49,815 nt of DNA from Candidatus Rokuibacteriota bacterium (GTDB taxonomy: Bacteria; Methylomirabilota; Methylomirabilia; Rokubacteriales; CSP1-6), in assembly GCA_016179875.1 (NCBI GenBank), contig JACPCH010000021.1, positions 1-49,815 on the forward strand. The letters are read 5' to 3'. The translations under genes and the position numbers were made by a program. This document shows, piece after piece, positions 23,910-40,306 of the stretch. Each line of letters begins with the position of its first letter. Position 1 is the first letter of the stretch. The notes beneath the pieces are model-generated. The model saw only the letters and a list, made by a program, of their open reading frames with translations, ran no database searches and was not told the DNA's origin.

Positions 23910-23916
23910 GGCGCCC

Positions 23917-24195
23917 ATGAACGGCACCGTGTTGACGCGCGGCTACGTGGTCATCTGGGGCTGGCTGCTCGTGCTGATGACGCTCTCCCTCTTCGCCAAC
24001 ACCCTGCCGGTGTCCCGGCCGGCGATCGTCACGCTGATGTTCGTGGTGGCGGCCGTGAAGGCCGTGCTGGTCGCGCTGCACTTCATGCACCTGCGGGTCG
24101 AGCGCTGGCTCATCTACGCCATCGCGATCGTCCCCGTGCTGCTCGTCTTCGGCCTGATGCTGGCGCTCTTCCCCGACTTCGTCTTCGCCCGGTGA
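23917..24195 (+). CDS. prokaryotic cytochrome c oxidase subunit IV family protein
   Basis: 92 aa, three hydrophobic helices, KAVLVALHFMHL motif typical of CoxD/CtaF-like small subunits. Confidence 0.75.
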   Translation: MNGTVLTRGYVVIWGWLLVLMTLSLFANTLPVSRPAIVTLMFVVAAVKAVLVALHFMHLRVERWLIYAIAIVPVLLVFGLMLALFPDFVFAR

Positions 24196-24767
24196 CGGCC
24201 GGGCCCGCGAGCCGCCCCCTGCCCGCGCTGCCCTCCCCGGCGTGGGTGGGCATGCTCTTCTTCGTGGGCGCGGAGGCGATGCTCTTCGGCGGCCTGCTCA
24301 TCGCGTTCCTCATCTTCCGCCTGGGAAGCCCGGTCTGGCCGCCGCTCGGCGAGCCGCGGCTGCCGCTCGGCGTGACCCTGGCCAATACCGCGATCCTGGT
24401 GGCGTCGAGCGTGGTGATGCGGCGGGCGGTGGCGCGCGCCCGCGCGGGCGCCGGAGCCGAGGCGCGCCGGGCCCTCGCGACGACGGCCGCCCTCGGCGTC
24501 ACGTTCCTCACGGTGCAGGGCAGCGAGTGGGTCCGGCTGGTGCGCTGGGGGCTCACGGCGACCTCGAGCCCCTACGGCGGGATCGTCTACGCGCTCCTCG
24601 CGGCTCACGGCGTCCACGTGCTGGCGGCGGTCGCCTGGCTCGTCGCGGTGGCGGTCCCCGGACGGCGCCCGCCCCCGCCCGCGCGGCGGCTCGAGGCGTG
24701 CGCGCTCTACTGGTCCTTCGTCTGCATCCTCTGGGTCGCGATCGTCGCCGTCGTCTACCTGGGCTGA
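24192..24767 (+). CDS. second heme-copper oxidase subunit III-like protein
   Basis: 191 aa, GMLFFVGAEAMLFGGL...LYWSFVCILWVAIVAVVYL mirrors subunit III motifs. GTG start overlaps the previous stop (GTGA). Confidence 0.7.
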   Translation: MTAGPASRPLPALPSPAWVGMLFFVGAEAMLFGGLLIAFLIFRLGSPVWPPLGEPRLPLGVTLANTAILVASSVVMRRAVARARAGAGAEARRALATTAALGVTFLTVQGSEWVRLVRWGLTATSSPYGGIVYALLAAHGVHVLAAVAWLVAVAVPGRRPPPPARRLEACALYWSFVCILWVAIVAVVYLG

Positions 24768-24774
24768 CCCCCGC

Positions 24775-25413
24775 TTACAGCAGCCGGTGCTTGCTGGCGT
24801 ACGCGACCGCCTCGAGGCGGCTGTGGACGCCGAGCTTGCCGAAGATGTTCTGCACGTGGTTGCGGACCGTGGCCGGGCTCACGTGCAGCTTCTCGGCGGC
24901 CGCCGCCGTGTTGAGGCCCTGCATCATGAGGCGCAGCACCTCGACCTCGCGGCGGGTCAGCGCCGAGGCGGCCTCGGGGCGCTCGCCGTTCGGCGGCCCG
25001 GCGAGCCGGTCGTGCACGAGCGTCAGGAGCTCCTTCGTCGCCGTCACGTCGCGGAAGAGGTGGACGGTCAGCGGGCCGCTCCGCCCGTTGGGCGGCGTGA
25101 CGAGGATGCTGACGTTGATCCAGATCGGCTTGCCGGCCTTCGAGCGCGTGTGCATGTCGAAGCTCTGGATCGGATCGCCGAGCTTCACGAGGTTCTGGAC
25201 GTGGCAGCCCTGGTAGCAGAGCCGGTTGCCGGCGTCGTCCACGCCGACGAAGACGTCGCAGCACGGGCGGCCCACCACCTCGCGCGCGGTGTAGCCGAGG
25301 ACCCGCTCGGCGGTCCGGTTCCACAGGACGATCCGCCCGTCTCCGCCGATCACGAAGGCGCCGTCGCCGGCCCGGGCCAGCGCCTGGTCGAGGCCCGACT
25401 CAATGGCGGGCAT
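24775..25413 (-). CDS. PAS-domain LuxR-family transcriptional regulator
   Basis: N-terminal PAS (GRIVLWNRTAERVLGYTAREVVGRP). C-terminal LuxR HTH (LTRREVEVLRLMMQGLNTAAAAEKLHVSPATVRNHVQNIFGKLGV). Confidence 0.9.
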   Translation of the reverse strand: MPAIESGLDQALARAGDGAFVIGGDGRIVLWNRTAERVLGYTAREVVGRPCCDVFVGVDDAGNRLCYQGCHVQNLVKLGDPIQSFDMHTRSKAGKPIWINVSILVTPPNGRSGPLTVHLFRDVTATKELLTLVHDRLAGPPNGERPEAASALTRREVEVLRLMMQGLNTAAAAEKLHVSPATVRNHVQNIFGKLGVHSRLEAVAYASKHRLL

Positions 25414-25525
25414 GGCGTTCGTACACCGGGCCGGCGAGCGCGGTCGAGAGGGCGTATGGCCCGCCGGCGAGCCCTGGATTCAGGAAGGGACACACCGCTG
25501 TCTCCACATCAGCCATCGTCATCAT
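25400..25525 (-). CDS. 41-aa CPFL-motif mini-protein (hypothetical)
   Basis: Own translation: MMTMADVETAVCPFLNPGLAGGPYALSTALAGPVYERHARH. GAAGGAGG lies 7 nt upstream of ATG 25525. It sits about 30 nt downstream of a sigma54-like promoter and overlaps the PAS-LuxR start by 14 nt. It shares the CPFL motif with the 28194-28660 proteins. Confidence 0.4.
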   Translation of the reverse strand: MMTMADVETAVCPFLNPGLAGGPYALSTALAGPVYERHARH

Positions 25526-25554
25526 GCGCTTACCTCCTTCTGGCGGCGGATGCC

Positions 25555-25570
25555 TGCGAGCTTCGTGCCA
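25555..25570 (-). promoter_or_regulatory. sigma54-like -24/-12 promoter P3 (weaker -12)
   Basis: The minus strand reads TGGCAC-GAAGC-TCGCA. GG-N10-GC spacing is kept, with TCGCA instead of TTGCA. It is about 30 nt upstream of the ATG at 25525. Confidence 0.5.
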
Positions 25571-25655
25571 GCAACCGACGCTCGATCTTTCAAGGGTTTC
25601 GGAATCGGCAGCGCACCGTTCGCGGCACCGTCTGGGGCGGCGACGCCCCACCCGG

Positions 25656-25673
25656 CTGGGTCGCATGACCCAG
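25656..25673. promoter_or_regulatory. perfect palindrome CTGGGTC-GCAT-GACCCAG upstream of P3
   Basis: 7-bp arms and a 4-nt spacer, about 95 nt upstream of P3. The half-site G(A/T)CCCA resembles the core of the 13-mer GTCCCA. Confidence 0.35.
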
Positions 25674-25804
25674 TGTCGGCACCGGGCGCGGCCCGCCCCC
25701 GACACCGTATGGCACCCGCCGCCCGTCACCTATGACGTGGCTCATACGACCTAGAGCAGGCGCGCGAGGCGGTCGTGAGCCGGCAGGGAGCGGCGGCGGC
25801 CGAA

Positions 25805-26907
25805 TCAGCCCAGAGCCGGGAGAGCGAGGCCGTCAGGCGACGTCACGCCACCTCGGGGCTCCCACGCGCACAGCGGATCCTCGCCCAGCGCGTCGCCGGT
25901 CGCCGCGAACGCGCGGGCGCGCGAGCCGCCGCACAGCGCGTGGAACCCGCACGCGCCGCAGCGGCCGTGGAACCGCTCGGGCGCGCGCAGGTCCCGGAAG
26001 AGCGCGGCGTCGCGGTAGATCTCCAGCACGTCGCCCTCGCGGACGTTGCCGGCGGCGAGCGGCAGGAAGCCCGACGGCGTCACGTCGCCGTTCGCCGCGA
26101 TAAACAGGATCCCGTTGCCGTCGCGGATGCCGAAGCTCCGCGCGGCCGGGCTCTGGCGGATCTCCGCGCCGTTGGCGCCGCCGGCGCGCATCGCCTGGAC
26201 CAGGACCCGGCGCCAGTGGGGCGCCTCCGTCGTGGTCACCGCGAACGGCCACCCGGGGGCGCGGGCCGCCAGCCAGCGGAGCGTGGCCTCGCACTCGTCG
26301 GCGCCGAGCGGGCGCAGGGCCCGGCCGCGACCGACGGACACCAGGAAGAAGAGGCTCCAGCGGGCGGCGCCCATCCGGGCGACGACCCGGGCGATGGATT
26401 CCAGATCGGGCTCGGTCTCCGCGGTGACCAGCGTGTTGACCTGGAGCGGGATGCCGGCCGCCACGATCCGCTGCGCGGCCACGAGGGTCCAGCCGAAGCA
26501 GCCGTAGACGCCCCGGAGGCCGTCGTGGCGGGCCGGGCTCGACCCGTCGAGCGACAGCGACATCGCGCCCACGCCGGCCTCCTTGAGGGCGGACACCGTG
26601 TCCCGGCCGAGCGCCTGGGTCGCGCTCGGCGCCACCGCGACCGGCAGCCCGAGCCCGACCGCGTGCCGCACGAGCGGGAGGAGGTCGGGCCGCTTGAGCG
26701 GGTCGCCGCCCGTGAAGACGACGTGGGGCGCGGGCGCGCCCGCGGCGGCCAGCTGGTCCAGCACCCGCTCGCACTCCGCCGTCGTGAGCTCGCACGGCTC
26801 GCGCTCCTTCTGCGCCTCGGCGCGGCAGTGGCGGCAGGCGAGGTCGCAGGCCCGCGTGAGCTCCCAGTACACGCGGACGGGCGCCCGCGCGTACACGGGA
26901 GCCGGCA

Positions 26908-26908
<1 letters not shown>
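25805..26908 (-). CDS. radical SAM / SPASM-domain enzyme (NirJ/AhbD-like architecture)
   Basis: Same frame as ORF 25805..27850, trimmed to ATG 26908. Radical SAM motif CDLACRHC in VYWELTRACDLACRHCRAEA. FFLVSVGRG. C-terminal auxiliary-cluster Cys motif GRCGACGFHALCGG. The start overlaps the gltA stop by 1 nt (TGATG). Confidence 0.9.
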
Positions 26909-28193
<1,285 letters not shown>

Positions 28194-28197
<4 letters not shown>

Positions 28198-28433
28198 GAC
28201 GCGCCTCCCGTCTGAAGCCAGTGGCGGTAGGTGAGACAGCCGTGGTGGCAGCCGGTGGTGCAGAACCACGCGAACTCGTCCGCGGAGGGAACGCACAGCG
28301 GTCCCAGACGGAGCCGGCAGGTGAACCCGTGCGGATAGCTGTGCTCGAGGTCGCCGTCCACGGCGACGAGGAACGGGCATCCGGTGGACACGTTCCCGGA
28401 ATCGATCGGGACGGAACGGTCGGTCGCGATCAT
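28194..28433 (-). CDS. Cys/His-rich CPFL-motif protein 2 (79 aa, hypothetical)
   Basis: Same frame as ORF 28194..28637, trimmed to ATG 28433 (GGGAGG upstream). MIATDRSVPIDSGNVSTGCPFLVAVDGDLEHSYPHGFTCRLRLGPLCVPSADEFAWFCTTGCHHGCLTYRHWLQTGGAS, with 6 Cys. The stop overlaps the gltA start (ATGA). High GC3. Confidence 0.6.
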
Positions 28434-28435
28434 GG

Positions 28436-28660
28436 TCAGCCTCCCTGCGGCGGCGCGCCGGTCGGGGCGCCCGCGCTCGCCTGGTACCGCCCGCACGCGA
28501 GGTAGGCGCGCGTGACGCACACGCCCGCGAGGGTGGCCGGCGCCGGGACCCGCACGCTCTGGCCCGGGCGGTGGCAGTACATCCCGACCGGATACAGCCA
28601 GAGCCGGTCCGCGATCACCGGAACCAGAAAGGGGCACCGGTCGTCGGGTTCGCTCGTCAT
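28436..28660 (-). CDS. Cys-rich CPFL-motif protein 1 (74 aa, hypothetical)
   Basis: MTSEPDDRCPFLVPVIADRLWLYPVGMYCHRPGQSVRVPAPATLAGVCVTRAYLACGRYQASAGAPTGAPPQGG, with 4 Cys. GGAGGAGGG upstream. High GC3. The stop lies 2 nt before the paralog start. Confidence 0.6.
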   Translation of the reverse strand: MTSEPDDRCPFLVPVIADRLWLYPVGMYCHRPGQSVRVPAPATLAGVCVTRAYLACGRYQASAGAPTGAPPQGG

Positions 28661-28688
28661 CGCGTCCCTCCTCCGGCGGCGCCCGCCC

Positions 28689-29450
28689 TCACGGGAGGCT
28701 CCGCCCGTTCGTGCGCCAGTGGATGACGGCCGCGCGCTTCCGGAACGGCGCGATCCACTCCCCGTCGGCGCGCCGCAGGCGCGCGGCCAGGAAGCCGCGC
28801 AGGAACGCGCGCGGCGCCTCGCCCTGGAGCCGCATGTACTCCATCCAGAAGTCGCACGCCTCGTCGAGCGAGTCGAACGGCTGGTCGGAGTCGTACTCGA
28901 TCGCCGTCACCGTGGGCCGCACGCCGAGCCGCGCCAGCTCGTCGAGCGCCTCGTCGGCGTCGCAGCCGTGCTCGTACGGCCGGCCGAGGAGGCGCGGGTA
29001 GAGCTCGCCGAAGAAGAACTTGTCGCCGCCGGGCACGTCGCGCACGAGCGCGACGCCCCGCCGGGCGACGGCGCCGGCCTCGCGGAGGAAGGACGCGCCG
29101 CGCTTCACGAGGGGGCTCACGTGGGCGCAGACGACGAGATCGTGCGGCGCGACGGGCGCCGCCCCCCACGCCGCCTCCATCACGGTCAGGCGGGCGAGCC
29201 CCTCCCGCCCGGCGGCGCGCGCGAGCGCCGCCGCCATCGCGGGCGCGGGCTCGAGCGCGGTCACGACGAGGCCGCGCCGCGCGAGCGGCAGCGCGAGGGC
29301 GCCGAAGCCGGCGCCGACGTCGAGCGCGCTCGTCGAGCCCGCCAGCAGGTCGGCGAGCGCGGCGAGGACCTTCGGGGCGTAGTCGCTCCGCGCGTTCGCC
29401 CGCTCGTACCAGGCGACCGTCCGCGCGTTCCAGAGATCGCCGCGGCTCAG
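28689..29450 (-). CDS. class I SAM-dependent methyltransferase (start codon unresolved)
   Basis: SAM motif ALDVGAGFGALALPLA about 40 aa into the frame. The coding-like third-position bias of this frame begins only near 29450, where the only candidate start is CTG. The ORF-track start at 29696 would add about 80 aa of non-coding-looking sequence that contains a sigma54 promoter. Confidence 0.75.
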   Translation of the reverse strand: MSRGDLWNARTVAWYERANARSDYAPKVLAALADLLAGSTSALDVGAGFGALALPLARRGLVVTALEPAPAMAAALARAAGREGLARLTVMEAAWGAAPVAPHDLVVCAHVSPLVKRGASFLREAGAVARRGVALVRDVPGGDKFFFGELYPRLLGRPYEHGCDADEALDELARLGVRPTVTAIEYDSDQPFDSLDEACDFWMEYMRLQGEAPRAFLRGFLAARLRRADGEWIAPFRKRAAVIHWRTNGRSLP

Positions 29451-29515
29451 CGCCGCTCGACCAGGCAGATCCGGACCTTCCCTTCCTGCGCCAGCATGGA
29501 CCCGATCGCGATCAT
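29447..29515 (-). CDS. 22-codon leader ORF (MIAIGSMLAQEGKVRICLVERR), or the displaced true N-terminus of the methyltransferase
   Basis: AGGAGG 6 nt upstream of ATG 29515. 20 of 21 codons end in G/C. Its TGA overlaps the CTG at the head of the methyltransferase frame (CTGA). It sits about 40 nt downstream of the sigma54 promoter. Confidence 0.35.
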   Translation of the reverse strand: MIAIGSMLAQEGKVRICLVERR

Positions 29516-29554
29516 CGTCGCCTCCTGGTAAGGGTCGTCGACTTTCGGAAGCGA

Positions 29555-29570
29555 CGCAACCCGCGTGCCA
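29555..29570 (-). promoter_or_regulatory. sigma54 (RpoN) -24/-12 promoter P2
   Basis: The minus strand reads TGGCAC-GCGGG-TTGCG, a near-consensus TGGCAC-N5-TTGC. It is about 40 nt upstream of the leader ORF ATG at 29515. Confidence 0.75.
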
Positions 29571-29668
29571 CGATGCCACGCGCCGGGCCTGGTCGAATGA
29601 CCCACGAACGTAGGACGCACTCACGGGGCGGCGCGCCCCCGGCGGGGCGGCTGCGCCCCAGGCGGCGA

Positions 29669-29681
29669 GGCGATGTCCCAC
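29669..29681. promoter_or_regulatory. candidate enhancer (UAS) 13-mer, copy 2
   Basis: The plus strand reads GGCGATGTCCCAC. It is about 105 nt upstream of P2, just after the CheY stop. Confidence 0.4.
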
Positions 29682-29685
29682 CGGG

Positions 29686-30051
29686 TCACCGGCCATGGAC
29701 GGTCCGCTCGACCAGCGTCGCGAGCTCCGACGCCGCGAAGGGCTTGGCGAGGTAGGCGGCGGCGCCCGCGCCGAACGCGGCCTGGCGGCTCGCCTCCGAG
29801 GCGAACCCGGTGACCACGATGACCGGCACGGGCGCCGGCGCCCGGCAGGCGGCGTGCACGATGTCGAGCCCGTCGCCGTCCGGCAGCCGGAGGTCCGAGA
29901 TGACGAGCGCGAGCCGCTCGCTCGCGATGATGGCGAGCCCCTCGTGACGCGTGCTGCTCCCGATCACCCGGTAGCCGGAGCGCCCCAGGAGCCGCTCGTA
30001 GCTGGCCAGGAGGTCCCGCTCGTCGTCGACGGCGAGGATCGCCGGTGTCAC
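29686..30051 (-). CDS. single-domain response regulator (CheY-like receiver)
   Basis: 121 aa, ILAVDDE...LVISDLRLPDGDG...YLAKPF receiver motifs. GTG start overlaps the CBS gene stop (GTGA). Confidence 0.9.
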   Translation of the reverse strand: MTPAILAVDDERDLLASYERLLGRSGYRVIGSSTRHEGLAIIASERLALVISDLRLPDGDGLDIVHAACRAPAPVPVIVVTGFASEASRQAAFGAGAAAYLAKPFAASELATLVERTVHGR

Positions 30052-30452
30052 GCCGTCTTCGCGAACTCGCGGAGCACGTCGGTCTCCGTGATGATCCCGA
30101 CGAGCTGGCCGCTCGAGACGACCGGCAGCGCGCCGATCTTGTTCTCCACCATGACCTGCGCCGCCTCACGGGCCTCCTGGGTCGGGCCGATCGCGATGAC
30201 GTCCTTCGTCATCACGGCGCCGACCGTCATCTTGGCCAGGAGGTAGTTGATCTCCCAGACCGAGAGGCTGGTCGCCGGCGACGGCAGGTTGAGGCGGATG
30301 TCGCGGTCCGTCACGATGCCGGCGAGCCGCCCGCCGTTGGTCACCAGCAGATGGCGGATGCGCTTCTCCACCATGAGCTGGCGGGCCTCCAGCACGGGGG
30401 TCTCGGGCGCCACGGTGATGTAGCTGATCGTCATGATGTCCTGGACTCGCAT
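30048..30452 (-). CDS. CBS-pair domain protein
   Basis: 134 aa, two CBS repeats (VQDIMTISYITV...HLLV and VGAVMTKDVIAI...ALPVV). Confidence 0.9.
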   Translation of the reverse strand: MRVQDIMTISYITVAPETPVLEARQLMVEKRIRHLLVTNGGRLAGIVTDRDIRLNLPSPATSLSVWEINYLLAKMTVGAVMTKDVIAIGPTQEAREAAQVMVENKIGALPVVSSGQLVGIITETDVLREFAKTA

Positions 30453-30462
30453 GGGTCCTCCT

Positions 30463-31587
30463 TCAGCGGTGAGAGGCGCCGGAGGCGCTTCGGTGGAGCT
30501 GGTGCGCCAGCCTCAGCACGGCCTCGATGGCGCTCCAGGCGTCTTGCCGGTCGGTCCGGAGCGTGAGCTCGGGGGCGAGCGCGTGCTCGTAGTCGGGCGC
30601 GACGTCGGGCGCCGCGACGGTCCCCGGCGCGCCGCGGCGGGCGACACCGCCCGCCGCCAGGCACCAGCGCACCGCGCGCTCGCGGTCCACGCAGAGCTCG
30701 CGGGGGCAGACCAGCTGGACCTCGGCGAAGTGCGCGATCAGCTGGCGCGCCATCTCGCGCCAGGCCCGGCGCGACGCCGTCGCGTCCACGATCACCGGGA
30801 CGCCGGCCTCCGTCAAGAGCTTCGCCGCGCCGGCGAGCGCGCGGTGGACCAGCTCCCGCGCCGCGTCCGACTCCGGGCGGTCGCCCAGGACGAAGCGCCG
30901 CAGGTCCGCGAGGTCGAGCACGCGGATCGGGATCCCCCGCTCCGCGAGCGCCTCGGCCGCGCCCCAGGCGAGCGTCGTCTTGCCGCTGCCCGGCAGCCCC
31001 GTGATCCAGATCGCCCAGCCGCCGGCCGCCGGGCTCCGGCCCGCGCGCGGCGCGCGGGCCAGTCCACGCGCCAGGTCCAGGATCGCCGCGACGGAGGCCG
31101 CCGGGTCGTGGCGCGCGGTGTCGAGCGTCAGCTCGGGCGCGAGCGCCGGCTCGTACGCCACGTCCACGCCCGGCACCGTCGCCCCCGCCCGCCCGGCCCG
31201 CGCGTAGATGCCGGGGGGCGCGTGTCCCCCGGCGCGCCGCGCCTCGCGCTCGCGGCACACGTCGAGCGGGCAGACGAGCTGCACCTCGGCGAAGCGCGCG
31301 ATCGTCGCGCGCGCCAGGTCGCGCCACGCCCGGCGGTGGCCGGTGGCGTCGACGATCACGGGCACGCCGGCCTCGGTCAGGGCCGCGGCGATGTACACGA
31401 GGGCGCGATACACCAGCTCGCGCTCCGTCGCCGAGTACGTCGGCGCCGGCGTGAGCGTCTTGCGGAGCGCGTCGAGCTCCAGGTGGACGACCGGCTCGCC
31501 GCGCTCGCGGAGCGCCGCCGCCGCGCTCCGCGCCAGCACCGACTTGCCGCTGCCCGGCAGCCCGGTGATCCAGATCGCCCAGCTCAT
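30463..31587 (-). CDS. tandem-duplicated P-loop kinase (two adenylylsulfate-kinase-like domains in one chain)
   Basis: Same frame as ORF 30463..32136, trimmed to ATG 31587 (ATGA overlap). Two roughly 188-aa halves each start AIWITGLPGSGK(S/T) and share ...LTEAGVPVIVDAT..RRAWR..A...FAEVQLVCP...ALAPELTL. Confidence 0.8.
   Translation of the reverse strand: MSWAIWITGLPGSGKSVLARSAAAALRERGEPVVHLELDALRKTLTPAPTYSATERELVYRALVYIAAALTEAGVPVIVDATGHRRAWRDLARATIARFAEVQLVCPLDVCREREARRAGGHAPPGIYARAGRAGATVPGVDVAYEPALAPELTLDTARHDPAASVAAILDLARGLARAPRAGRSPAAGGWAIWITGLPGSGKTTLAWGAAEALAERGIPIRVLDLADLRRFVLGDRPESDAARELVHRALAGAAKLLTEAGVPVIVDATASRRAWREMARQLIAHFAEVQLVCPRELCVDRERAVRWCLAAGGVARRGAPGTVAAPDVAPDYEHALAPELTLRTDRQDAWSAIEAVLRLAHQLHRSASGASHR
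30463..31587 (-). repeat. intragenic tandem duplication, period 564 nt
   Basis: The 41-nt segments 30979-31019 and 31543-31583 (cttgccgctgcccggcagccc[c/g]gtgatccagatcgcccagc) differ at 1 position. Further similarity runs along both halves. Confidence 0.8.
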
Positions 31588-32684
31588 CGGGCCGCCCCGC
31601 AGAGCCGGTCGAGGGCGCCGGGCGCGAACGCGCCGCCGTCGAGCAGGCCGGTCGCCAGCCGGACCAGCGCCGTCCGGGTGGCCGGCGCGAGGGTCGGGTA
31701 CCAGCGCGGATGCGCGATCACCAGTGCCCGGAACGCGAGGAACGGCGGCAGCACCTCCAGGAGCTCCGCGTCGCCCGACCGCACGAGGTACACGGCGAGG
31801 AAGCGCCGGAAGAGCTCGCGGAAGGGCTCGGCCACCGTCGCCGGCTCGCGCTCGCTCCGGCGCAGCCCGAAGAAGAGATAGTTGATGCCGAGCGCCGCGA
31901 CGTCGTCGGCCGGCTCGCCCCATTCCCCGCGGCTCCGGTCGAGCACCGAGAAGTCCGTGCCGTCGCGGAAGAGCAGGTTCCACGGGTGGAAGTCGCCGTG
32001 CGTGCGCGCGAGCCGGTGGCTCCGCCCCCGGAGGCGCCAGCGCCAGGCCACGGCGGCGCGCTCGAGCGCCTCGCACGCCGCCGGCGGCAGGAACGGCCAC
32101 GGATGCGGCAGGCTGTCGAGAATCCCCATCAGGCACTCGCCGTGGCCGACGAGCTCCCGGATGCGGCGCTCGTAGAGCGTCGGCTCGTCACGGCGCTCGG
32201 CGTGGGCGCCGGCGAGGAACGCCGCCAGCGCCTCGGCGCGCGCCACGTCCAGCGGGCGCGGCGGGGCGACGAGCAGCCGGTCGAGGTCGAGCCAGTACAG
32301 CTGTCCGGCCGCCTTCTCGACGAGCTGGAAGAACTCGTGCGCGTCGCCGGCCGAGACCAGTTCGCCCGACGCGCGCTCGAAGCCGACGTCGAGGCTCCTC
32401 ACGTGCCGCGGAAAGCTGTTGTACGCCTCGTGGGCGTACAGCGCCTGCCACGCGCGGTCGGCGGGATAGTCGTGGCCGAAGCCGCGGGCCGGCCGCGTGC
32501 GCGACACGACGAACGCGCGCGGCGCGCCCCCGACGAGGCACTCCACCTCGAAGGGCACGCCATAGCCGAACCCCTTCGGGTCGAGCTCCGCGCCCGCGGC
32601 GGCCTTGAGGGGCTGGAGGCCCAGGATCTCGACGGGCGTGCGGAGCACGCCGGCGAGATAGCCCGTGAGCGTTGACTTATCCAC
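31584..32684 (-). CDS. aminoglycoside-phosphotransferase / choline-kinase-fold kinase (APH family)
   Basis: 366 aa. Catalytic loop HGDFHPWNLLF and downstream VLDRSRGEWGEPADDVA. GTG start with GGAG upstream. Confidence 0.85.
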   Translation of the reverse strand: MDKSTLTGYLAGVLRTPVEILGLQPLKAAAGAELDPKGFGYGVPFEVECLVGGAPRAFVVSRTRPARGFGHDYPADRAWQALYAHEAYNSFPRHVRSLDVGFERASGELVSAGDAHEFFQLVEKAAGQLYWLDLDRLLVAPPRPLDVARAEALAAFLAGAHAERRDEPTLYERRIRELVGHGECLMGILDSLPHPWPFLPPAACEALERAAVAWRWRLRGRSHRLARTHGDFHPWNLLFRDGTDFSVLDRSRGEWGEPADDVAALGINYLFFGLRRSEREPATVAEPFRELFRRFLAVYLVRSGDAELLEVLPPFLAFRALVIAHPRWYPTLAPATRTALVRLATGLLDGGAFAPGALDRLCGAAR

Positions 32685-32735
32685 CCGTCTCCGGTGACGT
32701 CGGTGCCGCGGCCCCGGGGCAGCCCATCATCCGGC

Positions 32736-33176
32736 CTACCGGCCCCGCACCGTGAGCACCGGACACGGCGACGCCGCCACCACGCGCCCCGCCACGCTGC
32801 CGAGGAACAGCTTCGCAAGCCCCGAGCGTCCGTGCGTGCCCATCACGACGAGGTCCGCCCGCCGCGACTTCGCGATCCGCACGATCTGCTCGTGCGGCAC
32901 GCCTTCGAGGAGGAACCCCCTGGCCCGCACGCCGGCGGCCTTCGCCTTCGCGAGGCGCTTGGCGAGCTGCTTCTGCCCCCACGCCTTGGTGGACGCCGCG
33001 ATCTCGTCGTAGACCTTCGGCGAGATGTAGCCGTCGCCGGGCACGGGGATCACCGGGTTCATGACGTGCACGAGCAGCAGCTCGCCGCGGCCGGCCTTCG
33101 CCATCTCGACCGCCTTCGCGAAGGCGGCGGCGGAGGCCGTGGAGAAATCCGTGGGGTGCAGGACGCGGCGGCTCAT
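32736..33176 (-). CDS. universal stress protein (UspA family) 3
   Basis: Same frame as ORF 32736..33641, trimmed to ATG 33176 (ATGA overlap). ...DLVVMGTHGRSGLAKLFLGSVAGRVV... Confidence 0.9.
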   Translation of the reverse strand: MSRRVLHPTDFSTASAAAFAKAVEMAKAGRGELLLVHVMNPVIPVPGDGYISPKVYDEIAASTKAWGQKQLAKRLAKAKAAGVRARGFLLEGVPHEQIVRIAKSRRADLVVMGTHGRSGLAKLFLGSVAGRVVAASPCPVLTVRGR

Positions 33177-33649
33177 CGCACGGCCTCCCAGGCCGCGCGC
33201 GCGGCCACCTGCGCCTCGGTCTGGCGCATCAGGAACACGGGCACCTCGGACTGCCGCAGCACCGCCTCGGCGACGGAGCCGAACAGCAGCCGGCCGAACC
33301 CGCTGCGCCCGTGCGTGGTCATCGCGATCAGGTCGGCCTTCGCCTCGCGGGCGGCGGCGAGGATCTCCCCGGCGGGCTCGCCGCGGCGCACCATGGTCCG
33401 GACGCGGATGCCCTTGGTGCGCAGCTCCGCGGCGATCGGCGTCAGGTACGCCTCGGCCTCCGCGCGCCGCTTTTCCGGGTCCTCCACCTCGACGTGCCGT
33501 GAGGCCTCGATGACCGACGGCGGCACCGGCACCATCACGCGGACCAGCACGACCTCGATGTCGAGCGGCCCCGCGATCTCGAGGATGAACGGCAGGATGC
33601 CCTCGGCCACGATGGAGCCATCGAGCGGGATGGCGACGCACTTATACAC
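33173..33649 (-). CDS. universal stress protein (UspA family) 2
   Basis: 158 aa, ...DLIAMTTHGRSGFGRLLFGSVAEAVL... Confidence 0.9.
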   Translation of the reverse strand: MYKCVAIPLDGSIVAEGILPFILEIAGPLDIEVVLVRVMVPVPPSVIEASRHVEVEDPEKRRAEAEAYLTPIAAELRTKGIRVRTMVRRGEPAGEILAAAREAKADLIAMTTHGRSGFGRLLFGSVAEAVLRQSEVPVFLMRQTEAQVAARAAWEAVR

Positions 33650-34121
33650 GGCTGGTCTCCTTCACCGGCGCCGCGGCGCGCGGCGGCTCGAGGGGCGCGC
33701 TGTCGGCGCGCACGACGAGGATGGGGGTGGTGGTGCCACGCAGCACCGCCTCGGCGACGCTCCCGAGGATCAAGCGGCCCAGGCCGCTCCGCCCGTGCGT
33801 GGACATCGTGATCAGGTCCGCCTTCTGCACGCGCGCCGCCTCGACGATGGCCCCGGCGGGTGCGCCGTACCAGACGTGCGTCTCCACCTTCCGGATGTCG
33901 CGGTCCGCCAGCCGGCGGACGACGCCCTCGAGATACTCCTCGGCCTCGCGTACCGCCGCGACCTGCGCGTCCACCGGATCGGCGCCGGGCACGGTGTGCG
34001 CCTCGGCAGCCCTGAGGAGGCTCACCGTGGCGTCCGTGCCGGCCAGATCGATCGCCTGCCACAACGCCGCCTCGGCCAGGGTCGAGCCGTCCAGCGGCAC
34101 CAGGATCTTGGCGAGCTTCAT
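33642..34121 (-). CDS. universal stress protein (UspA family) 1
   Basis: Same frame as ORF 33642..34142, trimmed to ATG 34121 (GGAGGAGG 6 nt upstream). ...DLITMSTHGRSGLGRLILGSVAEAVL... Confidence 0.9.
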   Translation of the reverse strand: MKLAKILVPLDGSTLAEAALWQAIDLAGTDATVSLLRAAEAHTVPGADPVDAQVAAVREAEEYLEGVVRRLADRDIRKVETHVWYGAPAGAIVEAARVQKADLITMSTHGRSGLGRLILGSVAEAVLRGTTTPILVVRADSAPLEPPRAAAPVKETSRV

Positions 34122-34171
34122 GGGCTGCCTCCTCCCCGTCATGGGTTGCCTGCACTCCGCTCACGGAGACG

Positions 34172-34187
34172 AGCAACCCCGATGCCA
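34172..34187 (-). promoter_or_regulatory. sigma54 (RpoN) -24/-12 promoter P1
   Basis: The minus strand reads TGGCAT-CGGGG-TTGCT with exact GG-N10-GC spacing. It is 50 nt upstream of the USP start at 34121 and immediately downstream of the bEBP gene. Confidence 0.7.
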
Positions 34188-34200
34188 GAGGGAAGAGGTG

Positions 34201-34229
34201 AAGGAAAACGGCGGCTTATCGCCCGTTTC
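34201..34229 (-). terminator. intrinsic-terminator-like hairpin after the bEBP gene
   Basis: The minus strand reads GAAACGGGCG-ATAAG-CCGCCGTTTTCCTT. This gives a stem of about 8 bp with one bulge followed by a T-rich tail, located between the bEBP stop and P1. Confidence 0.5.
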
Positions 34230-34259
34230 TCGGGGGCTCGATGTGGCCGGGCAGCCCCT

Positions 34260-34272
34260 GTGGGACATCGCC
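34260..34272. promoter_or_regulatory. candidate enhancer (UAS) 13-mer, copy 1
   Basis: The plus strand reads GTGGGACATCGCC, the exact reverse complement of the 13-mer at 29669-29681. It is about 80 nt upstream of P1. Confidence 0.4.
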
Positions 34273-34288
34273 GCCCCGTCGCCGAGGG

Positions 34289-35689
34289 CTAACCGCGGAT
34301 CTGGTACTTGTTGATGAGCCGGTGGAAGGTCTTGCGGTCGATGCCGGCGGCCTTGGCGGCCGCCGAGATGTTGCCCCCGTGGCGCTCGAGGAGGTCGCGC
34401 AGGTACGCGGCCTCGAGCACCTGCATCCATTTCTCCTTGGCGTCCTTGAGCGGCAGGTCGGCGGTGGCGCCGGCCGGCAGGGCCGCCCCGGCCGCCGGCG
34501 CGGCGCCGGCGGCGCGCAGGCCCCGGCCCTGGACGAGGTAGTCGGGCAGATCCTGACGGCCGACGCGGTCGCCGTCGGCGAGCGCGCACGCCCGCTCGAC
34601 CACGTTCTGCAGCTCGCGCACGTTGCCCGGCCACGCCCAGGCCTCGAGCGTCTCGAGCGCGGCTTCCTCGAACGCGCGCACGCGCTCGCCGCCGTAGCGC
34701 TTGAGGAAGGCGTGCGCGAGCAGCCGCACGTCGCCCGCGCGGTCGCGGAGCGGCGGCAGCGGGATCTCGATCACGTTGACCCGGTAGTAGAGCTCCTCGC
34801 GGAACTGCCCCTTGGCGACCGCCGCCCGGAGGTCCCGGTTGGTCGCCGAGACCACGCGGGCGTCCACGTCGATCGTCGCGGTCCCGCCCACGCGGCGCAG
34901 CTGGCGCTCCTGGAGCGCGCGCAGGAGCTTCACCTGGAGGACCACGGGCATCTCCGCGATCTCGTCCAGGAAGAGCGTGCCGCGGTCGGCGACCTCCATG
35001 AGCCCGCGCTTACCCTTCACCGCCCCGGTGAACGCGCCCTTTTCGTGGCCGAACAGCTCCGACTCGAGGAGCTGCTCGGGGAGCGACGCGCAGTCCACCG
35101 GCACGAACGGCTGGGCCGCCCGCGGGCTGTTGGCGTGGATCGCCCGCGCGATCAGCTCCTTGCCGGTGCCCGATTCGCCGAGCACCAGGATGTTGGCCTC
35201 GGAGCGGGCCGCCTTGCGGACGAGCTCGAACACCCTCGCCATCGCCGGGCTTCGTCCGAGGATGTTCTCGAAGCCGAGCGTGCCCTGCAGCTGGTCGCGC
35301 AGGTTGCGGTTCTCGATCTGGAGCTCGCGCTGCCGGAGCCCGCGCTCGACCGCCACCCGGAGCTGCTCCACCGAGAAGTTCTTCGGCAGGTAGTCGAAGG
35401 CCCCGTCCTTGATGGCCGCCACCGCGGACTCGATCGTCGCGAACGCGGTGATGAGGACGACCGGGAGCGCCGGGTCCACCTCCCGGGCCCGGCGCAGCAG
35501 CTCCATGCCATCCATCCCCGGCATCTTGACGTCGGTCAGCAGGAGATCCGGACGCTCGGTCTCGACGAGCGCCAGCGCCCGGCGCGGGTCGGTGGCGGTC
35601 AGACACTGGAGGCCCGCGCGCTTCAGGATGCGGGCGCAGTTCTCGACCATGTCCGGCTCGTCGTCCACCACCAGCACGCGCTGCGCCAT
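34289..35689 (-). CDS. sigma54-dependent response regulator (NtrC-family bacterial enhancer-binding protein)
   Basis: Same frame as ORF 34289..36616, trimmed to ATG 35689. Receiver (VLVVDDE...TDVKMPGMDG), AAA+ (GESGTGKE, GAFTGA, LFLDEI), and C-terminal Fis-type HTH. Confidence 0.95.
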   Translation of the reverse strand: MAQRVLVVDDEPDMVENCARILKRAGLQCLTATDPRRALALVETERPDLLLTDVKMPGMDGMELLRRAREVDPALPVVLITAFATIESAVAAIKDGAFDYLPKNFSVEQLRVAVERGLRQRELQIENRNLRDQLQGTLGFENILGRSPAMARVFELVRKAARSEANILVLGESGTGKELIARAIHANSPRAAQPFVPVDCASLPEQLLESELFGHEKGAFTGAVKGKRGLMEVADRGTLFLDEIAEMPVVLQVKLLRALQERQLRRVGGTATIDVDARVVSATNRDLRAAVAKGQFREELYYRVNVIEIPLPPLRDRAGDVRLLAHAFLKRYGGERVRAFEEAALETLEAWAWPGNVRELQNVVERACALADGDRVGRQDLPDYLVQGRGLRAAGAAPAAGAALPAGATADLPLKDAKEKWMQVLEAAYLRDLLERHGGNISAAAKAAGIDRKTFHRLINKYQIRG

Positions 35690-37335
35690 CAGGCCAGCTC
35701 CCCGTCCCCCGCGCCGCGGAACGTCAGCACGAACGTCGTGCCCTCGCCGGGCCGCGACTGCACGTCCACGGTGCCCCGGTGCTCGCGCACGATCCCGTAG
35801 GAAATGCTGAGGCCGAGGCCGGTGCCCTCGGCCTTGGTCGTGAAGAACGGGTCGAAGATCCGCGGCAGGTCCTCGGGCGGGATGCCCGGGCCCGTGTCGC
35901 GCACGACCAGGCGCACGCCGCCGGGCGGCTCGGCCGCGGGCGCGGTCTCGATCGCGATCTCGCCGCCTTTTCGCACGGCGTCGCGCGCGTTGGTCAGCAG
36001 GTTCATCACCACCTGCTGGAGCGCGTTGGCGTCGCCCCAGACCGGGGGCAGCGTCGGCGCCAGGGCGCGCCGGAGCGCGATGCCGTCGCGGACGATCTGC
36101 TTCTCGATCAGGAGCAGGGTCTCGTCCACCAGGCGGTTGAGGTCCACGCGCCCGTGGGCGCCCGAGGAGTGGCGGGAGAACGACAGGAGGCCCTGCGCGA
36201 TGCGCGCGACGCGCTGGGCGTGGCGGTGGATCACGTGCAGGTCCTCGCGCACGTCCGCGGGCAGCGGGCGCGTCTCGGCGTCGAGCTGCATCAGCTCGGC
36301 GCGCGTCGAGATGACGCCGATCGGGTTGTTGAGCTCGTGGGCGAGGCCCGCCGCCAGCGTGCCGAGCGCCGCGAGCTTCTCGGCCTGGCGGGCGGCGCGC
36401 TCGATGCCGACGCGCTCGGTGATGTCCTCGACCAGGAGGACCGCGCCCGCGGGCCGCGCGCCCTCCCGGAGCAGGCGTCCCTTGATGTTCTGGACGACCA
36501 TGCCCGTGCGCAGGCTCTGGTGGTCGACGCCCTCCTCCGCGAACTCCTCGATCTCGCCGCGCAGCAGCCGCCCGAGGCTCTGCGACCACGGCTCCCTGGC
36601 GGCCGCGGGGAAGCACTCGAAGTAGCGGCGTCCGGTGACCTCGGCGGCCGGCACGTCGTAGCGCGTCTCCATGGCGCGGTTCCAGGCCACGATCCGCCCG
36701 TCGGCGTCGAGCGCGAACACGCCCTCGCTCAGGTTGTCCACGACGCTCTGGATGAACCGCTCACGGTCCAGGATCTCGGCGGAGAGCGTCGCCCCGCGCA
36801 GGCGCTCGCGCTGCTCGATCTCGGCGAGGACGCCCACGCTGACGGCCGTGCCGAGCAGGACGATGAGCCGCATGGCGACGTTGGGGATCTCCAGGCCCAC
36901 GATGGTCGGCCAGACGACGGCCAGGTAGGCCGCCGCCGACACGCAGGCGACCGCCACCCCGCGCCGGATGCCGTAGTAGTACGACTGCAGCGCGGCGATC
37001 AGCGGCAGCGCCAGGTAGAGGCCGCTGCGCGCCCCGCCCGTCAGGGCGATCAGGACCAGCGCGAAGAGCTGGTCGAGGAGGAGGACGTAGAAGTTCAGCC
37101 GGAGCGTCGCCGCCGGCCGCGTCCAGAGCGCCGCCTCCACCGCCGTGCTGTAGACGAGGAAGCCCAGCGTGGCCAGCAGCAGGGCCTGCGACTCCTGGAA
37201 GGGCGCCGGCGCGAGGAGGAGCCAGGCCAGCGCGGCCAGGACCGCCAGCGTGCGCAGCAGCGGCAGCGCCAGCACCCGGGCGCCCCCGACGTGGAGCGCC
37301 AGCCGGTCGAACATGCGGGTCAGCGTCTCGGTCAT
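35689..37335 (-). CDS. membrane sensor histidine kinase (TM region, PAS, HisKA, HATPase)
   Basis: 548 aa. N-terminal hydrophobic helices, PAS, H-box LAHELNNPIG, N/G boxes (NLLTNARDA, DTGPGI, GTGLGLS). The stop overlaps the bEBP start by 1 nt. Confidence 0.9.
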   Translation of the reverse strand: MTETLTRMFDRLALHVGGARVLALPLLRTLAVLAALAWLLLAPAPFQESQALLLATLGFLVYSTAVEAALWTRPAATLRLNFYVLLLDQLFALVLIALTGGARSGLYLALPLIAALQSYYYGIRRGVAVACVSAAAYLAVVWPTIVGLEIPNVAMRLIVLLGTAVSVGVLAEIEQRERLRGATLSAEILDRERFIQSVVDNLSEGVFALDADGRIVAWNRAMETRYDVPAAEVTGRRYFECFPAAAREPWSQSLGRLLRGEIEEFAEEGVDHQSLRTGMVVQNIKGRLLREGARPAGAVLLVEDITERVGIERAARQAEKLAALGTLAAGLAHELNNPIGVISTRAELMQLDAETRPLPADVREDLHVIHRHAQRVARIAQGLLSFSRHSSGAHGRVDLNRLVDETLLLIEKQIVRDGIALRRALAPTLPPVWGDANALQQVVMNLLTNARDAVRKGGEIAIETAPAAEPPGGVRLVVRDTGPGIPPEDLPRIFDPFFTTKAEGTGLGLSISYGIVREHRGTVDVQSRPGEGTTFVLTFRGAGDGELA

Positions 37336-37396: not shown

Positions 37397-39763
37397 TCAG
37401 AGGCGGCCCAGGGCCCTCAACACCACCCCGGGGGTGATCGGCTGCGCGCTCACGCGGGCGCCGAGCGGCGCCAGGGCGTCGTTCACGGCGTTCAGCACGG
37501 CGCCGGGCGCGCCGGCCGTCCCGGCCTCGCCGGCGCCCTTGAAGCCGCCCTCGGCGTAGGCCGTCGGCGTCTCGACGTGGCCGACGACGATGTCGGGCAT
37601 CTCGGCGGCCATCGGCACCAGGTAGTCCATCAGGGACGCCGTCAGGAGCTGGCCCGCGCCATCGTAGACGCAGTGCTCGAGGAGCGCGGCGCCGAGCCCC
37701 TGGACGATCGCGCCCCGGATCTGCTCGTCCACGAGCCGCGGGTTGATGATCCGGCCGCAGTCCTCGACGGCCCAGTGGCCGAGCAGGCGCACCCCGCCGG
37801 TCTCGACGTCCACCTCGACGTGCGAGAGCTGGACGCCGTTGGTGAAGGCGAAGCCCTGATGGCGCGGCACGTAGTGGCGCGTGACCGTCAGCTCGGACTG
37901 GAAGTCCTTCGGCAGCGTGTCGGGGCGGAAGTAGGCCACGCGGCCCAGCTCGGCCAGATCCAGCTTCACCTCGCCCGTCAGCGCATCCACCACGCGGCCG
38001 AGCCGCACGTCGAGGTCCTCGGGCTCGCCGCCGAGGACCGCCGCCGCGACGCGCAGGACGTTCTGCTTGAGCGCCTTGCCCGACTGCAGCGCCGCCTCGC
38101 CGCCGATGCCGGCGCCGCGCGAGGCCCAGGTGCCGCCGCCGTAGGGCGACACGAGCGTGTCCCCGGTGAGGACGCGCACGTCCTCGAGGCGCACGCCCAC
38201 CGCGGTCGCGACGACCTGGGCGAGCATCGCGTCGGTCCCCTGCCCCTGCTCGGTGACGCCGGTGAGACACGTGACGGTGCCCGAGGGCTCGAGCCTCAGC
38301 GTGACGCCGTCCTGGGACGAGATCCGCGCCCCGCCGACGCCGTAGAACGCCGGGCCCGGCGTGGTCAGCTCGATGAACGCGCAGAGCCCGAGGCCCCGGT
38401 ACACGCCGCGCCGCCGGAGAGCGTCGCGCTCGGCGCCGAGCTTGCGGTACTCCGACATCTCGAGGAGCTTGTCGAGGCACTCCTCGTGCGAGAGGCGCTC
38501 GAAGAAATAGCCGGTCGGCGCCGTGTACGGGTACATGTCCCCGGTGATGAAGTTCCGCCGGCGCACCTCGACCGGGTCCAGCTCGAGCGCGCGCGCGACG
38601 TGGTCCACCATGCCCTCCATCACCGCGAAGGCGATCGGGTGGCCCACCGCCCGGTACTGGCACATCGGCGTCTTGTTCTGCAAGACCACGCGCAGGCGCG
38701 CGGCGTAGTCGCGGAATCGGTAGCAGCCCGGCGTGAGGCGCACGGTCTGGTTGCCCTCGACGGCGCTGGTGCGCGGGTAGACCGAGTACGGGCCGATGCC
38801 GGTGAGGTCGTCCAGCTTCATGCCGAGGATCGTGCCGTCGCGCCGGACGGCGACCTCGGCGCGCACGCGGTGGTCGCGGGCGTGGATGTCGGACAGGAAC
38901 GACTCGTGACGGTCGGCGAGGAACTTCACCGGCCGCCCGAGCAGCACCGCCAGCGCGCAGGTCGCCATCTCGTCGGGGTAGACGTGGACCTTGATGCCGA
39001 ACGAGCCCCCGACGTCCTTGCAGATCACGCGGACGTTCTGCTCCTCGAGGCCGAGGTGGCGGGCCAGGATGTCCTGCATCATGTTCGGCGCCTGGAAGGA
39101 GTGGTGGACGGTCAGGCGCCGCTCCGACGGGTCGAAGTCGGCCAGGATGACGCGCGGCTCGAGCGTCACCCCGGTGTGGCGGCCCATCGTGAAGGTCTCG
39201 GCGACGACGGCGTCGGCGTTCTTGAACGCCTCCTCCACGTTGCCCGCGTTCAGCTCGAGCGCGAAGGCGAGGTTGTCGCCGAGCTCGGGATGGATGACGG
39301 GCGTGCCCGGATCGAGCGCCGTCTCGGGATCCGTCACGGCCGGCAGCGGCTCCCAGGCGACCGCCACGCGCGCCGCCCCATCCTCGGCGATGGCGCGGCT
39401 CTCCGCGACGACGGCGGCGACGGGCTCGCCCTGCCAGGTGGCGCGGTCGAGCGCCAGCGCGTGCTGCGTCGCGGACTTCATGCCCGCGAAGTGGGCGAGC
39501 GTGCCCACCCAGCCCGAGCACACGCGGGCGAGCTCCGGGCCGGTGACGACGGCGACGACCCCCGCCAGCGCCCGGGCCGCGTCCGTCTCGATGCGCGCGA
39601 TGCGGGCGTGGGCGTGGGGGCTCCGCACGAACGCCACGTGCGTCATGCGCGGGAGCTTCACGTCGTCGGTGTAGACGCCGCGGCCGGCCAGGAGGCGCGC
39701 CGTCTGGGGGCGCACGACGCTCAGGCCGATGTAGCTGACACCCGCCTCGATCCGCTCGCTCAC
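37397..39763 (-). CDS. xanthine dehydrogenase / aerobic CO dehydrogenase family molybdopterin-binding large subunit
   Basis: Same frame as ORF 37397..40099, trimmed to GTG 39763 (GGAGG upstream, GTGA overlap). 788 aa with GGSFG and GQGTDAM, typical of the Mo-hydroxylase family. Confidence 0.9.
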   Translation of the reverse strand: MSERIEAGVSYIGLSVVRPQTARLLAGRGVYTDDVKLPRMTHVAFVRSPHAHARIARIETDAARALAGVVAVVTGPELARVCSGWVGTLAHFAGMKSATQHALALDRATWQGEPVAAVVAESRAIAEDGAARVAVAWEPLPAVTDPETALDPGTPVIHPELGDNLAFALELNAGNVEEAFKNADAVVAETFTMGRHTGVTLEPRVILADFDPSERRLTVHHSFQAPNMMQDILARHLGLEEQNVRVICKDVGGSFGIKVHVYPDEMATCALAVLLGRPVKFLADRHESFLSDIHARDHRVRAEVAVRRDGTILGMKLDDLTGIGPYSVYPRTSAVEGNQTVRLTPGCYRFRDYAARLRVVLQNKTPMCQYRAVGHPIAFAVMEGMVDHVARALELDPVEVRRRNFITGDMYPYTAPTGYFFERLSHEECLDKLLEMSEYRKLGAERDALRRRGVYRGLGLCAFIELTTPGPAFYGVGGARISSQDGVTLRLEPSGTVTCLTGVTEQGQGTDAMLAQVVATAVGVRLEDVRVLTGDTLVSPYGGGTWASRGAGIGGEAALQSGKALKQNVLRVAAAVLGGEPEDLDVRLGRVVDALTGEVKLDLAELGRVAYFRPDTLPKDFQSELTVTRHYVPRHQGFAFTNGVQLSHVEVDVETGGVRLLGHWAVEDCGRIINPRLVDEQIRGAIVQGLGAALLEHCVYDGAGQLLTASLMDYLVPMAAEMPDIVVGHVETPTAYAEGGFKGAGEAGTAGAPGAVLNAVNDALAPLGARVSAQPITPGVVLRALGRL

Positions 39764-40236: not shown

Positions 40237-40265
40237 GGCGGACTGTATCTTAGCCCGGAACGACG

Positions 40266-40300: not shown

Positions 40301-40306
40301 AAGAGT

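Follow-up and report, generated by a model that had tools for sequence, protein, structure and literature searches.

The window analysed here, a 49,815-nt stretch of contig JACPCH010000021.1 from a Candidatus Rokuibacteriota bacterium (73% G+C), carries a 12.5-kb island in which genes for a sensor histidine kinase and an NtrC-family activator are followed, on the same strand, by three gene strings, each behind a sigma-54-type promoter (P1, P2 and P3). Genes were called from third-position G+C and named with Pfam and NCBIfam; coordinates within the island refer to the minus strand unless the plus strand is named. From high to low coordinates, the kinase (35689-37335; Pfam PAS, HisKA and HATPase_c) and the activator (34289-35689; Response_reg, Sigma54_activat and HTH_8) precede unit 1 (29686-34121), whose overlapping or abutting genes encode three universal stress proteins (USP1, 33642-34121; USP2, 33173-33649; USP3, 32736-33176), an APH-like kinase (31584-32684), a tandem APS-kinase-like protein (30463-31587), a CBS pair (30048-30452) and CheY (29686-30051). 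Unit 2 (25805-29515) runs from a 22-aa open reading frame (ORF; 29447-29515) through an S-adenosylmethionine (SAM) methyltransferase (28689 to about 29450), the small proteins CPFL_A (28436-28660) and CPFL_B (28194-28433) and a type I citrate synthase (26908-28197; 591 bits in NCBIfam, above the cutoff) to a radical SAM/SPASM protein of the NCBIfam equivalog TIGR04053 (25805-26908). CPFL_B and citrate synthase genes overlap as ATGA, and those of citrate synthase and the radical SAM protein as TGATG. Unit 3 (24775-25525) consists of a 41-aa CPFL-like mini-ORF (25400-25525) and a PAS-LuxR regulator (24775-25413). An earlier note, made from the sequence of this DNA, had described the kinase/activator pair at 37335-34289 and the content of the three units, and the domain matches bear out both. 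Its view of the unit heads needs some revision: gene strings do follow the promoters, but the 22-aa ORF, not the methyltransferase, directly follows P2, and the USP1 gene begins at 34121 and not with the ATG farther upstream (34142).

A motif search recovered the three -24/-12 motifs that the same note had placed on the minus strand: P1 (34172-34187, TGGCATcggggTTGCT), P2 (29555-29570, TGGCACgcgggTTGCG) and P3 (25555-25570, TGGCACgaagcTCGCA), the last with an atypical C before the -12 GC. All three are intergenic, lie on the coding strand and stand upstream of a gene start. The -12 element ends 51, 40 and 30 nt, respectively, before the start codon, with a Shine-Dalgarno sequence in between (GGAGGAGG, AGGAGG and AAGGAGG), in good agreement with the 30-50 nt ahead of a strong Shine-Dalgarno sequence and start codon proposed before. 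The pattern TGGCAY-N5-TYGC has exactly three matches on both strands of the window, namely P1, P2 and P3, where 0.47 would be expected, and 1 of 100 shuffled windows held three such matches. Each of the promoters is one mismatch away from the 11-position TGGCAC-N5-TTGCW, and no other site in the window comes as close. A position-weight matrix for sigma-54 trained on dyad-associated sites ranks P1 first in the window (21.2) and P2 second (12.6); P1 orthologues dominate its training set, so these values are not a fair generic score. At sequence level P1-P3 combine the properties of sigma-54 promoters, namely GG-N10-GC spacing, placement and, as described below, orthologous conservation. The suspicion that a genome of 73% G+C would yield such matches by chance could draw on the loose pattern TGGC-N9-GC, which is unenriched in the window (84 matches against 74.5 expected) and uninformative. 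However, the excess of the tight motif, all of it at gene heads, an independent dyad upstream of each promoter and the conservation of the sites at orthologous positions in many genomes leave this explanation effectively refuted. An extra TGGCAT at 29573-29578, 8 nt upstream of the TGGCAC of P2 (TGGCATCGTGGCAC), has no matching -12 element and is therefore probably not a promoter.

The dyads provide the second line of evidence. The window holds two copies of GGGGC-N6-GCCCC (25634-25649 and 29644-29659), and relaxing the pattern to GGGGC-N6-GYCCC adds 34262-34277, which makes exactly three copies, one upstream of each promoter. The centre of the dyad lies 83.5 nt (P1), 82.5 nt (P2) and 72.5 nt (P3) from the first G of the -24 GG; the difference is about one helical turn, so that the three dyads fall on the same face of the helix, and the chance of three random sites in such positions is about 2e-9. 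At P1 the enhancer-like element (34243-34277) consists of tandem dyads, GGGGCGGCGATGTCCC and GGGGCTGCCCGGCCAC, 19 nt start to start; at P2 (29625-29659) it consists of the perfect dyad GGGGCGCAGCCGCCCC and of GGGGGCGCGCCGCCCC, again 19 nt apart. In both cases the second dyad, 19 nt downstream of the first, is slightly degenerate. The dyad of P3 (25634-25649, GGGGCGTCGCCGCCCC) is perfect. P1-P3 are sigma-54-type promoters that share a phased dyad, in tandem at P1 and P2. Tandem dyads are the layout typical of NtrC-type enhancers, and these elements have what is expected of the binding sites of a bacterial enhancer-binding protein: dyad symmetry, usually in tandem, some 70-150 nt upstream and on a constant helical face. 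The association holds well beyond the island. Across 955 kb comprising the window and related DNA, a sigma-54-like motif lies 55-100 nt downstream of 21 of the 32 distinct dyads (chance fraction 0.003), with distances that cluster at about 83 nt (13 sites) and 73 nt (4 sites) and also fall at 64, 86 and 92 nt, and tandem dyads are spaced 19-21 nt apart.

We also considered the dyads as RNA hairpins or terminators and rejected this reading: what is conserved is the sequence of the half-sites and not their pairing, the dyads are found in either orientation, and they stand at a set distance from the -24 element. The orientation GGGAC-N6-GCCCC, which is also found among the dyads, would place A against C in RNA and not pair, indicating a DNA site and not a hairpin. 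An Rfam scan of the island returned no credible RNA family.

The likeliest candidate for the protein that acts at these sites is encoded next to P1. The activator has a Response_reg domain, an AAA+ domain (Sigma54_activat, 3e-71) that keeps the GESGTGKE and LFLDEI (Walker A/B) motifs and an intact GAFTGA loop, and a C-terminal HTH_8 domain, and its gene adjoins that of a HisKA/HATPase kinase, the full complement of a two-component enhancer-binding protein of the NtrC family. It scores below the NCBIfam cutoff of every named equivalog (AtoC, NtrC, ZraR, GlrR, NtrX and others), AtoC being the best at 478 bits against a cutoff of 714, and we classify it on this sequence evidence as a member of the NtrC family that is not an orthologue of any named equivalog. 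The kinase has an N-terminal region of about 175 residues with some six hydrophobic helices, followed by one cytoplasmic PAS domain, HisKA and HATPase_c; its catalytic core is ZraS/NtrB-like, with ZraS as the closest solved structure. Kinase and activator are translationally coupled, the stop codon of the former overlapping the ATG of the latter as TGATG.

Judging from sequence, the adjacent activator is quite probably the protein that binds the dyads. In at least 10 loci its gene stands immediately ahead of P1, and so of the dyad pair that is best conserved, and among 15 orthologues there is hardly any variation in its helix-turn-helix (HTH), GN(I/V)S(A/S)AAKAAGIDRKTFHRLINKY. A different factor, either the PAS-LuxR protein encoded behind P3 or an activator encoded elsewhere, might instead bind the shared dyad, in which case the kinase/activator pair would control at most P1. 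PAS-LuxR genes themselves stand behind a dyad and a sigma-54 motif in two related loci (L097 and L007), and some promoters of this kind are on contigs with no activator gene nearby. However, LuxR-type factors cannot activate sigma-54, L001 and L009 have no PAS-LuxR gene at the corresponding position, and tandem dyads 19-21 nt apart at a phased 73 or 83 nt are the classic layout of an NtrC-type enhancer; together with the position of the activator gene and its near-invariant HTH, these observations make another binder improbable in our estimation.

To place the island in its lineage we compared it with 98 loci (designated by L numbers) drawn from the contexts of CPFL homologues and from a metagenome scan with the APH-like kinase. 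The module of kinase, activator, USPs, APH-like kinase, double APS-kinase-like protein, CBS pair and CheY recurs in many contigs from Rokubacteria and soil. Dozens of soil contigs have its core, USPs to CheY, and about eight contigs have the larger island that extends to citrate synthase and the radical SAM protein. L007/L008 has a near-complete island, from the kinase through CheY, a small ORF, CPFL_B, citrate synthase and radical SAM protein to PAS-LuxR, with three USPs, and variants are found in L001, L009, L010, L014, L015, L022 and L030. The -24/-12 element of P1 ahead of the first USP gene is conserved in 27 distinct sequences, together with the tandem dyads (consensus GGGGC-N6-GTCCCA for site 1 and GRGGC-N6-GCCYCA for site 2) and a T-rich box, in spacers that have otherwise diverged. 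For both P2 and P3 conservation extends to one further lineage, L007/L008: P2 as TGGCACgcgccTTGCG, and P3, ahead of the PAS-LuxR gene, with the same TGGCAC-N5-TCGCA (TGGCACagacaTCGCA) and a dyad about 72 nt upstream.

The same wiring appears ahead of other genes. Dyad and sigma-54 motif precede a PAS-LuxR gene in L097 (spacing 83 nt), a cluster encoding PCYCGC, Fer4_5, EB_dh and cytochrome c proteins in L098 (8320-8726, spacing 70 nt), a membrane protein gene adjoining a cytochrome c gene in L046 (3306) and a lone CPFL gene in L096 (5941). These pairs indicate, at the level of sequence, that the regulon is larger than the island.

Altogether we envision a scenario in which the membrane-embedded PAS histidine kinase would phosphorylate the adjacent NtrC-family activator, which would then bind the GGGGC-N6-GYCCC dyads (tandem at P1 and P2, single and strong at P3) about 73 or 83 nt upstream of the -24 GG and remodel the sigma-54 holoenzyme at all three promoters. 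P1 would drive the three USPs, the APH-like kinase, the double APS-kinase-like protein, the CBS pair and CheY; P2 would drive the methyltransferase, the two four-cysteine CPFL proteins, a second citrate synthase and the AhbD-like TIGR04053 protein; and P3 would drive a cysteine-rich PAS-LuxR protein as a second regulatory tier, with read-through from P1 perhaps adding to transcription from P2 and P3. This model, which makes the 12.5-kb island a cassette for a sigma-54 regulon in a genome of Rokubacteria type, has in our estimation a probability of about 0.72. The sequence evidence likewise makes it probable that the three units are co-induced. That they form one regulon under the adjacent two-component system, as the earlier note had proposed, is supported in silico by every test applied, namely the shared phased dyad, the conservation, the adjacency of the activator gene and the near-invariant HTH. 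The circuit is a new, well-supported example of a well-known kind of switch.

Several observations weigh against this model. The RpoN box has no match in the window and the 98 related loci, the rest of the genome lying outside the search; the GAFTGA loop of the activator, which contacts sigma-54, speaks indirectly for an rpoN gene. P3 carries a single strong dyad, its -12 element reads TCGCA, and it is not among the 16 best matches to the position-weight matrix, a matrix built mainly from P1 orthologues. The kinase has no heme, oxygen-sensing or other diagnostic cofactor signature in Pfam matches, structure match or sequence. A consensus scan of the island detected no sigma-70-like promoter, which speaks for the model, and no canonical terminator, so that read-through between the three units is possible and transcription from P1 could contribute to all of them. 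Finally, P2 is missing from the 34-nt gap between CheY and winged-helix genes in L001, L009 and L010, and in L015 and L022 there are only short gaps after CheY. In all five of these loci CGGCACatcgcTTGCA, accompanied by dyads, immediately precedes CPFL_B, citrate synthase and the radical SAM gene instead, and this shift suggests that unit boundaries are evolutionarily fluid.

Taken to their limit, some of these points describe one long operon transcribed from P1, with P2 and P3 as weak or vestigial sigma-54 sites of little independent activity: no terminator was detected between the units, 34 nt separate CheY from the next gene in the three lineages that have no P2, and the -12 element of P3 departs from consensus. 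We give this alternative little credence. A perfect dyad stands at a phased distance from both P2 and P3, the two promoters are kept in L007/L008 despite otherwise diverged spacers, and the lineages without P2 still place a dyad and a sigma-54 motif before CPFL_B, citrate synthase and radical SAM genes.

Unit 2 and unit 3 contain the least familiar proteins of the island. The CPFL proteins are 65-100 aa long, nearly always stand-alone, and share four near-invariant cysteines in the consensus CPFLVPVxADRLWxYPxGAYC-x17-C-x7-CxGYR. A single-sequence query with CPFL_B returned one match and was replaced by an alignment query; the family then comprised 140 matches in a word-indexed search and about 214 clusters in 1.84 billion representatives, and all matches with source names come from Rokubacteria/NC10. 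Neither single sequences nor 79 members matched any Pfam or NCBIfam model, Foldseek found no match in the PDB, and the AlphaFold model is of moderate quality (predicted local distance difference test score 64.8). By these sequence searches the CPFL proteins are a small undescribed family. Their genes recur beside those for citrate synthase, the radical SAM protein and pyruvate:ferredoxin oxidoreductase (PFOR) and beside PAS-LuxR genes, often behind sigma-54 motifs. We considered a cluster for a ribosomally synthesized and post-translationally modified peptide, with the radical SAM enzyme maturing CPFL peptides, and rejected it as the main idea since either gene is often present where the other is not: L004, L005, L014, L030, L046, L048 and L072 have the radical SAM gene and no tblastn match to CPFL, and L011, L094, L096 and L097 have CPFL genes and no radical SAM gene. 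The obligate pairing of a maturase with a small adjacent precursor that defines such clusters is not seen here.

The radical SAM protein belongs to TIGR04053 (422.8 bits against a cutoff of 395), the next-best NCBIfam model being AhbD heme b synthase (283 against a cutoff of 500), and a protein search retrieved homologues from Rokubacteria metagenome-assembled genomes. An identical citrate synthase is present in GCA_016209405.1 (contig JACQWE010000172.1). Genes for PFOR are inserted in the same island in L001, L009, L010 and L098.

The small ORFs at the unit heads have their own histories. The 22-aa ORF (MIAIGSMLAQEGKVRICLVERR) is what an in-frame internal deletion has left of a winged-helix gene of 73 aa; L001 (2701-2922) and L009 have this gene intact, and L007 (9906-10004) has a different remnant of 32 aa. 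The 22-aa ORF keeps its start, Shine-Dalgarno sequence and final codons, as if for translational coupling. The methyltransferase gene has no canonical start codon near the start of its conserved N-terminus; at 29440-29455 the TGA stop of the 22-aa ORF overlaps an in-frame CTG as CTGA, likewise in L001 and L015, which suggests re-initiation at CTG or coupling. Behind P3, the 41-aa ORF resembles a truncated CPFL gene and overlaps the PAS-LuxR start by 14 nt; an adjacency of PAS-LuxR, CPFL and PAS-LuxR genes recurs in L097. The PAS domain of the PAS-LuxR protein carries four cysteines (C51, C52, C66 and C70; CC-x13-C-x3-CH) that are invariant in four homologues, and this conservation suggests that the domain senses a metal, an Fe-S cluster or redox state. 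One could go further and speculate that the CPFL proteins are a new class of small metal or Fe-S redox proteins of Rokubacteria/NC10, acting with TIGR04053, citrate synthase and PFOR in an oxygen-responsive switch that is wired to sigma-54 through the dyad, with PAS-LuxR as a second-tier oxygen or redox sensor; we regard this extension as doubtful.

To which signal might the programme answer? USPs, CBS pairs and nucleotide-kinase-like proteins are typically proteins of energy status or stress. The recurrent theme of the island is oxygen-labile enzymes (the AhbD-like radical SAM protein here, PFOR in relatives) together with a dedicated citrate synthase, and genes for a heme-copper oxidase adjoin it in two lineages, the window and L009. 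From this gene content and by analogy with the NmpR and DosR systems, we tentatively suggest limitation of oxygen or energy, at somewhat less than even odds. It is also conceivable, although rather unlikely, that the architecture is as we describe and the signal another one, such as energy or nutrient starvation, stationary phase, desiccation, or membrane or redox stress at the polytopic kinase. The generic character of the USP, CBS and nucleotide-kinase-like proteins and the missing heme or oxygen-sensing signature in the kinase would suit this alternative; the recurrence of the radical SAM protein and PFOR, the four cysteines in the PAS domain of PAS-LuxR, the neighbouring oxidase genes in two lineages and the fact that the closest experimentally studied analogues, NmpR and DosR, control hypoxia regulons argue against it. 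The stress or dormancy-type programme suggested in the earlier note has thus gained support from PFOR in relatives, the PAS cysteines and the NmpR analogue, and is still to be read as a suggestion.

The nearest of these analogues is the oxygen-utilisation regulon of the NmpRSTU system of Myxococcus xanthus. NmpR is an NtrC-like regulator that acts through tandem GCGCA-N5-TGCGC dyads at hypoxia-induced sigma-54 promoters and controls a CBS protein, a single-domain USP, a cbb3 oxidase and HemN, an oxygen-independent radical SAM enzyme of heme metabolism; on its sensing side a protoglobin kinase (NmpU) and a hybrid kinase (NmpS) form a phosphorelay (McAllister et al. 2025, PMC11841059). The island shares with NmpR an NtrC-like regulator, tandem dyads upstream of several sigma-54 promoters, CBS, USP and radical SAM targets and a soil bacterium as host. 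However, the dyad here is GGGGC-N6-GYCCC, the sensor is a single polytopic-membrane PAS kinase with no globin domain, no autoregulatory promoter is seen in the island, and the island adds the APH-like and APS-kinase-like proteins, citrate synthase, the CPFL proteins and the PAS-LuxR tier. The system may work like NmpR, but it fails NmpR's defining features, the dyad and the sensor architecture, and the comparison is one of features and not of activator orthology.

Gene content also recalls the DosRST regulon of Mycobacterium tuberculosis, a USP-rich, hypoxia-type regulon under a dedicated two-component system that includes the CBS-pair protein Rv2626c and the APH-related Rv2004c. There the sensors have heme-GAF domains, and the regulator, DosR, is of the NarL/LuxR type and works at sigma-70-type promoters. 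The likeness is one of gene content only (USPs, CBS and APH-related proteins), control here being by sigma-54 and an AAA+ activator. With NtrB-NtrC and ZraS-ZraR the island shares the domain architecture of the activator, a ZraS-like kinase core, GAFTGA and tandem dyads about 100 nt upstream of the start, but the activator lies below the equivalog cutoffs and its targets are unrelated to nitrogen, zinc or acetoacetate. NreB is an oxygen sensor kinase with a four-cysteine [4Fe-4S] PAS domain, and PAS-LuxR resembles it in its four invariant PAS cysteines. However, the spacing in PAS-LuxR is CC-x13-C-x3-C, and the protein is a one-component LuxR-type regulator and not a kinase.

Uncultured Rokubacteria are abundant in soils and aquifers, and to our knowledge almost nothing is known of their regulation; a literature search found nothing on sigma-54 in Rokubacteria or on TIGR04053. 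The locus offers a concrete and testable circuit, with a kinase/activator pair, a predicted 16-bp dyad enhancer and three promoters of defined spacing, which is conserved across the lineage and could be rebuilt in a heterologous host. It links a USP-rich stress programme to uncharacterised families, namely TIGR04053, the CPFL proteins and the pair of APH-like kinase and tandem APS-kinase-like protein, and so yields functional hypotheses for them, and it provides a marker set for metatranscriptomes of soils with fluctuating oxygen.

Further boxes lie in the promoter regions. Between the P1 enhancer and the -24 element is a T-rich box (34200-34216, AGCCGCCGTTTTCCTTC), kept at the equivalent position, as ..TAA..GTTTT.. 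or ..TAA..GYTGTTTTCSTT, in the USP-operon promoters of L007, L009, L015, L022, L024 and others. CPFL-gene promoters carry another box, GATTCCG (L001, L015, L022, L003 and P3 of the window). Both boxes may be bend sites or sites for architectural proteins. The element GGGTCAT(T/G)CGACC is common to the regions of P2 (29591-29603) and P3 (25659-25671) only, about 28 and 96 nt upstream of the -24 GG, respectively. The window holds two exact and two one-mismatch copies, one of the latter at 25739-25751 on the plus strand, against 0.42 expected at up to one mismatch; among the related loci it was found in none except L093, which is from the same genome. A second regulator may bind there.

Within unit 1, the gene of the APS-kinase-like protein (30463-31587) consists of two 564-nt tandem repeats of about 78% identity, and the three USP genes (32736-34121) are paralogous repeats spaced about 480 nt apart. 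Convergent on the island, on the plus strand at 20520-24767, lies the heme-copper oxidase cluster (Rrf2, COX2, COX1, an unidentified 171-aa ORF, COX4 and COX3); a COX cluster follows the island in L009/L010 as well. On the other side, 5' of the kinase (37397-40381, minus strand), are genes for a large subunit of the xanthine dehydrogenase/CO dehydrogenase family with three Pfam molybdenum-cofactor domains and for a 2Fe-2S small subunit, preceded by tRNA-Gly(CCC) (40307-40381). This xanthine dehydrogenase-type neighbourhood is not conserved, and in L007 a gene for an MtrB/PioB porin occupies the position.

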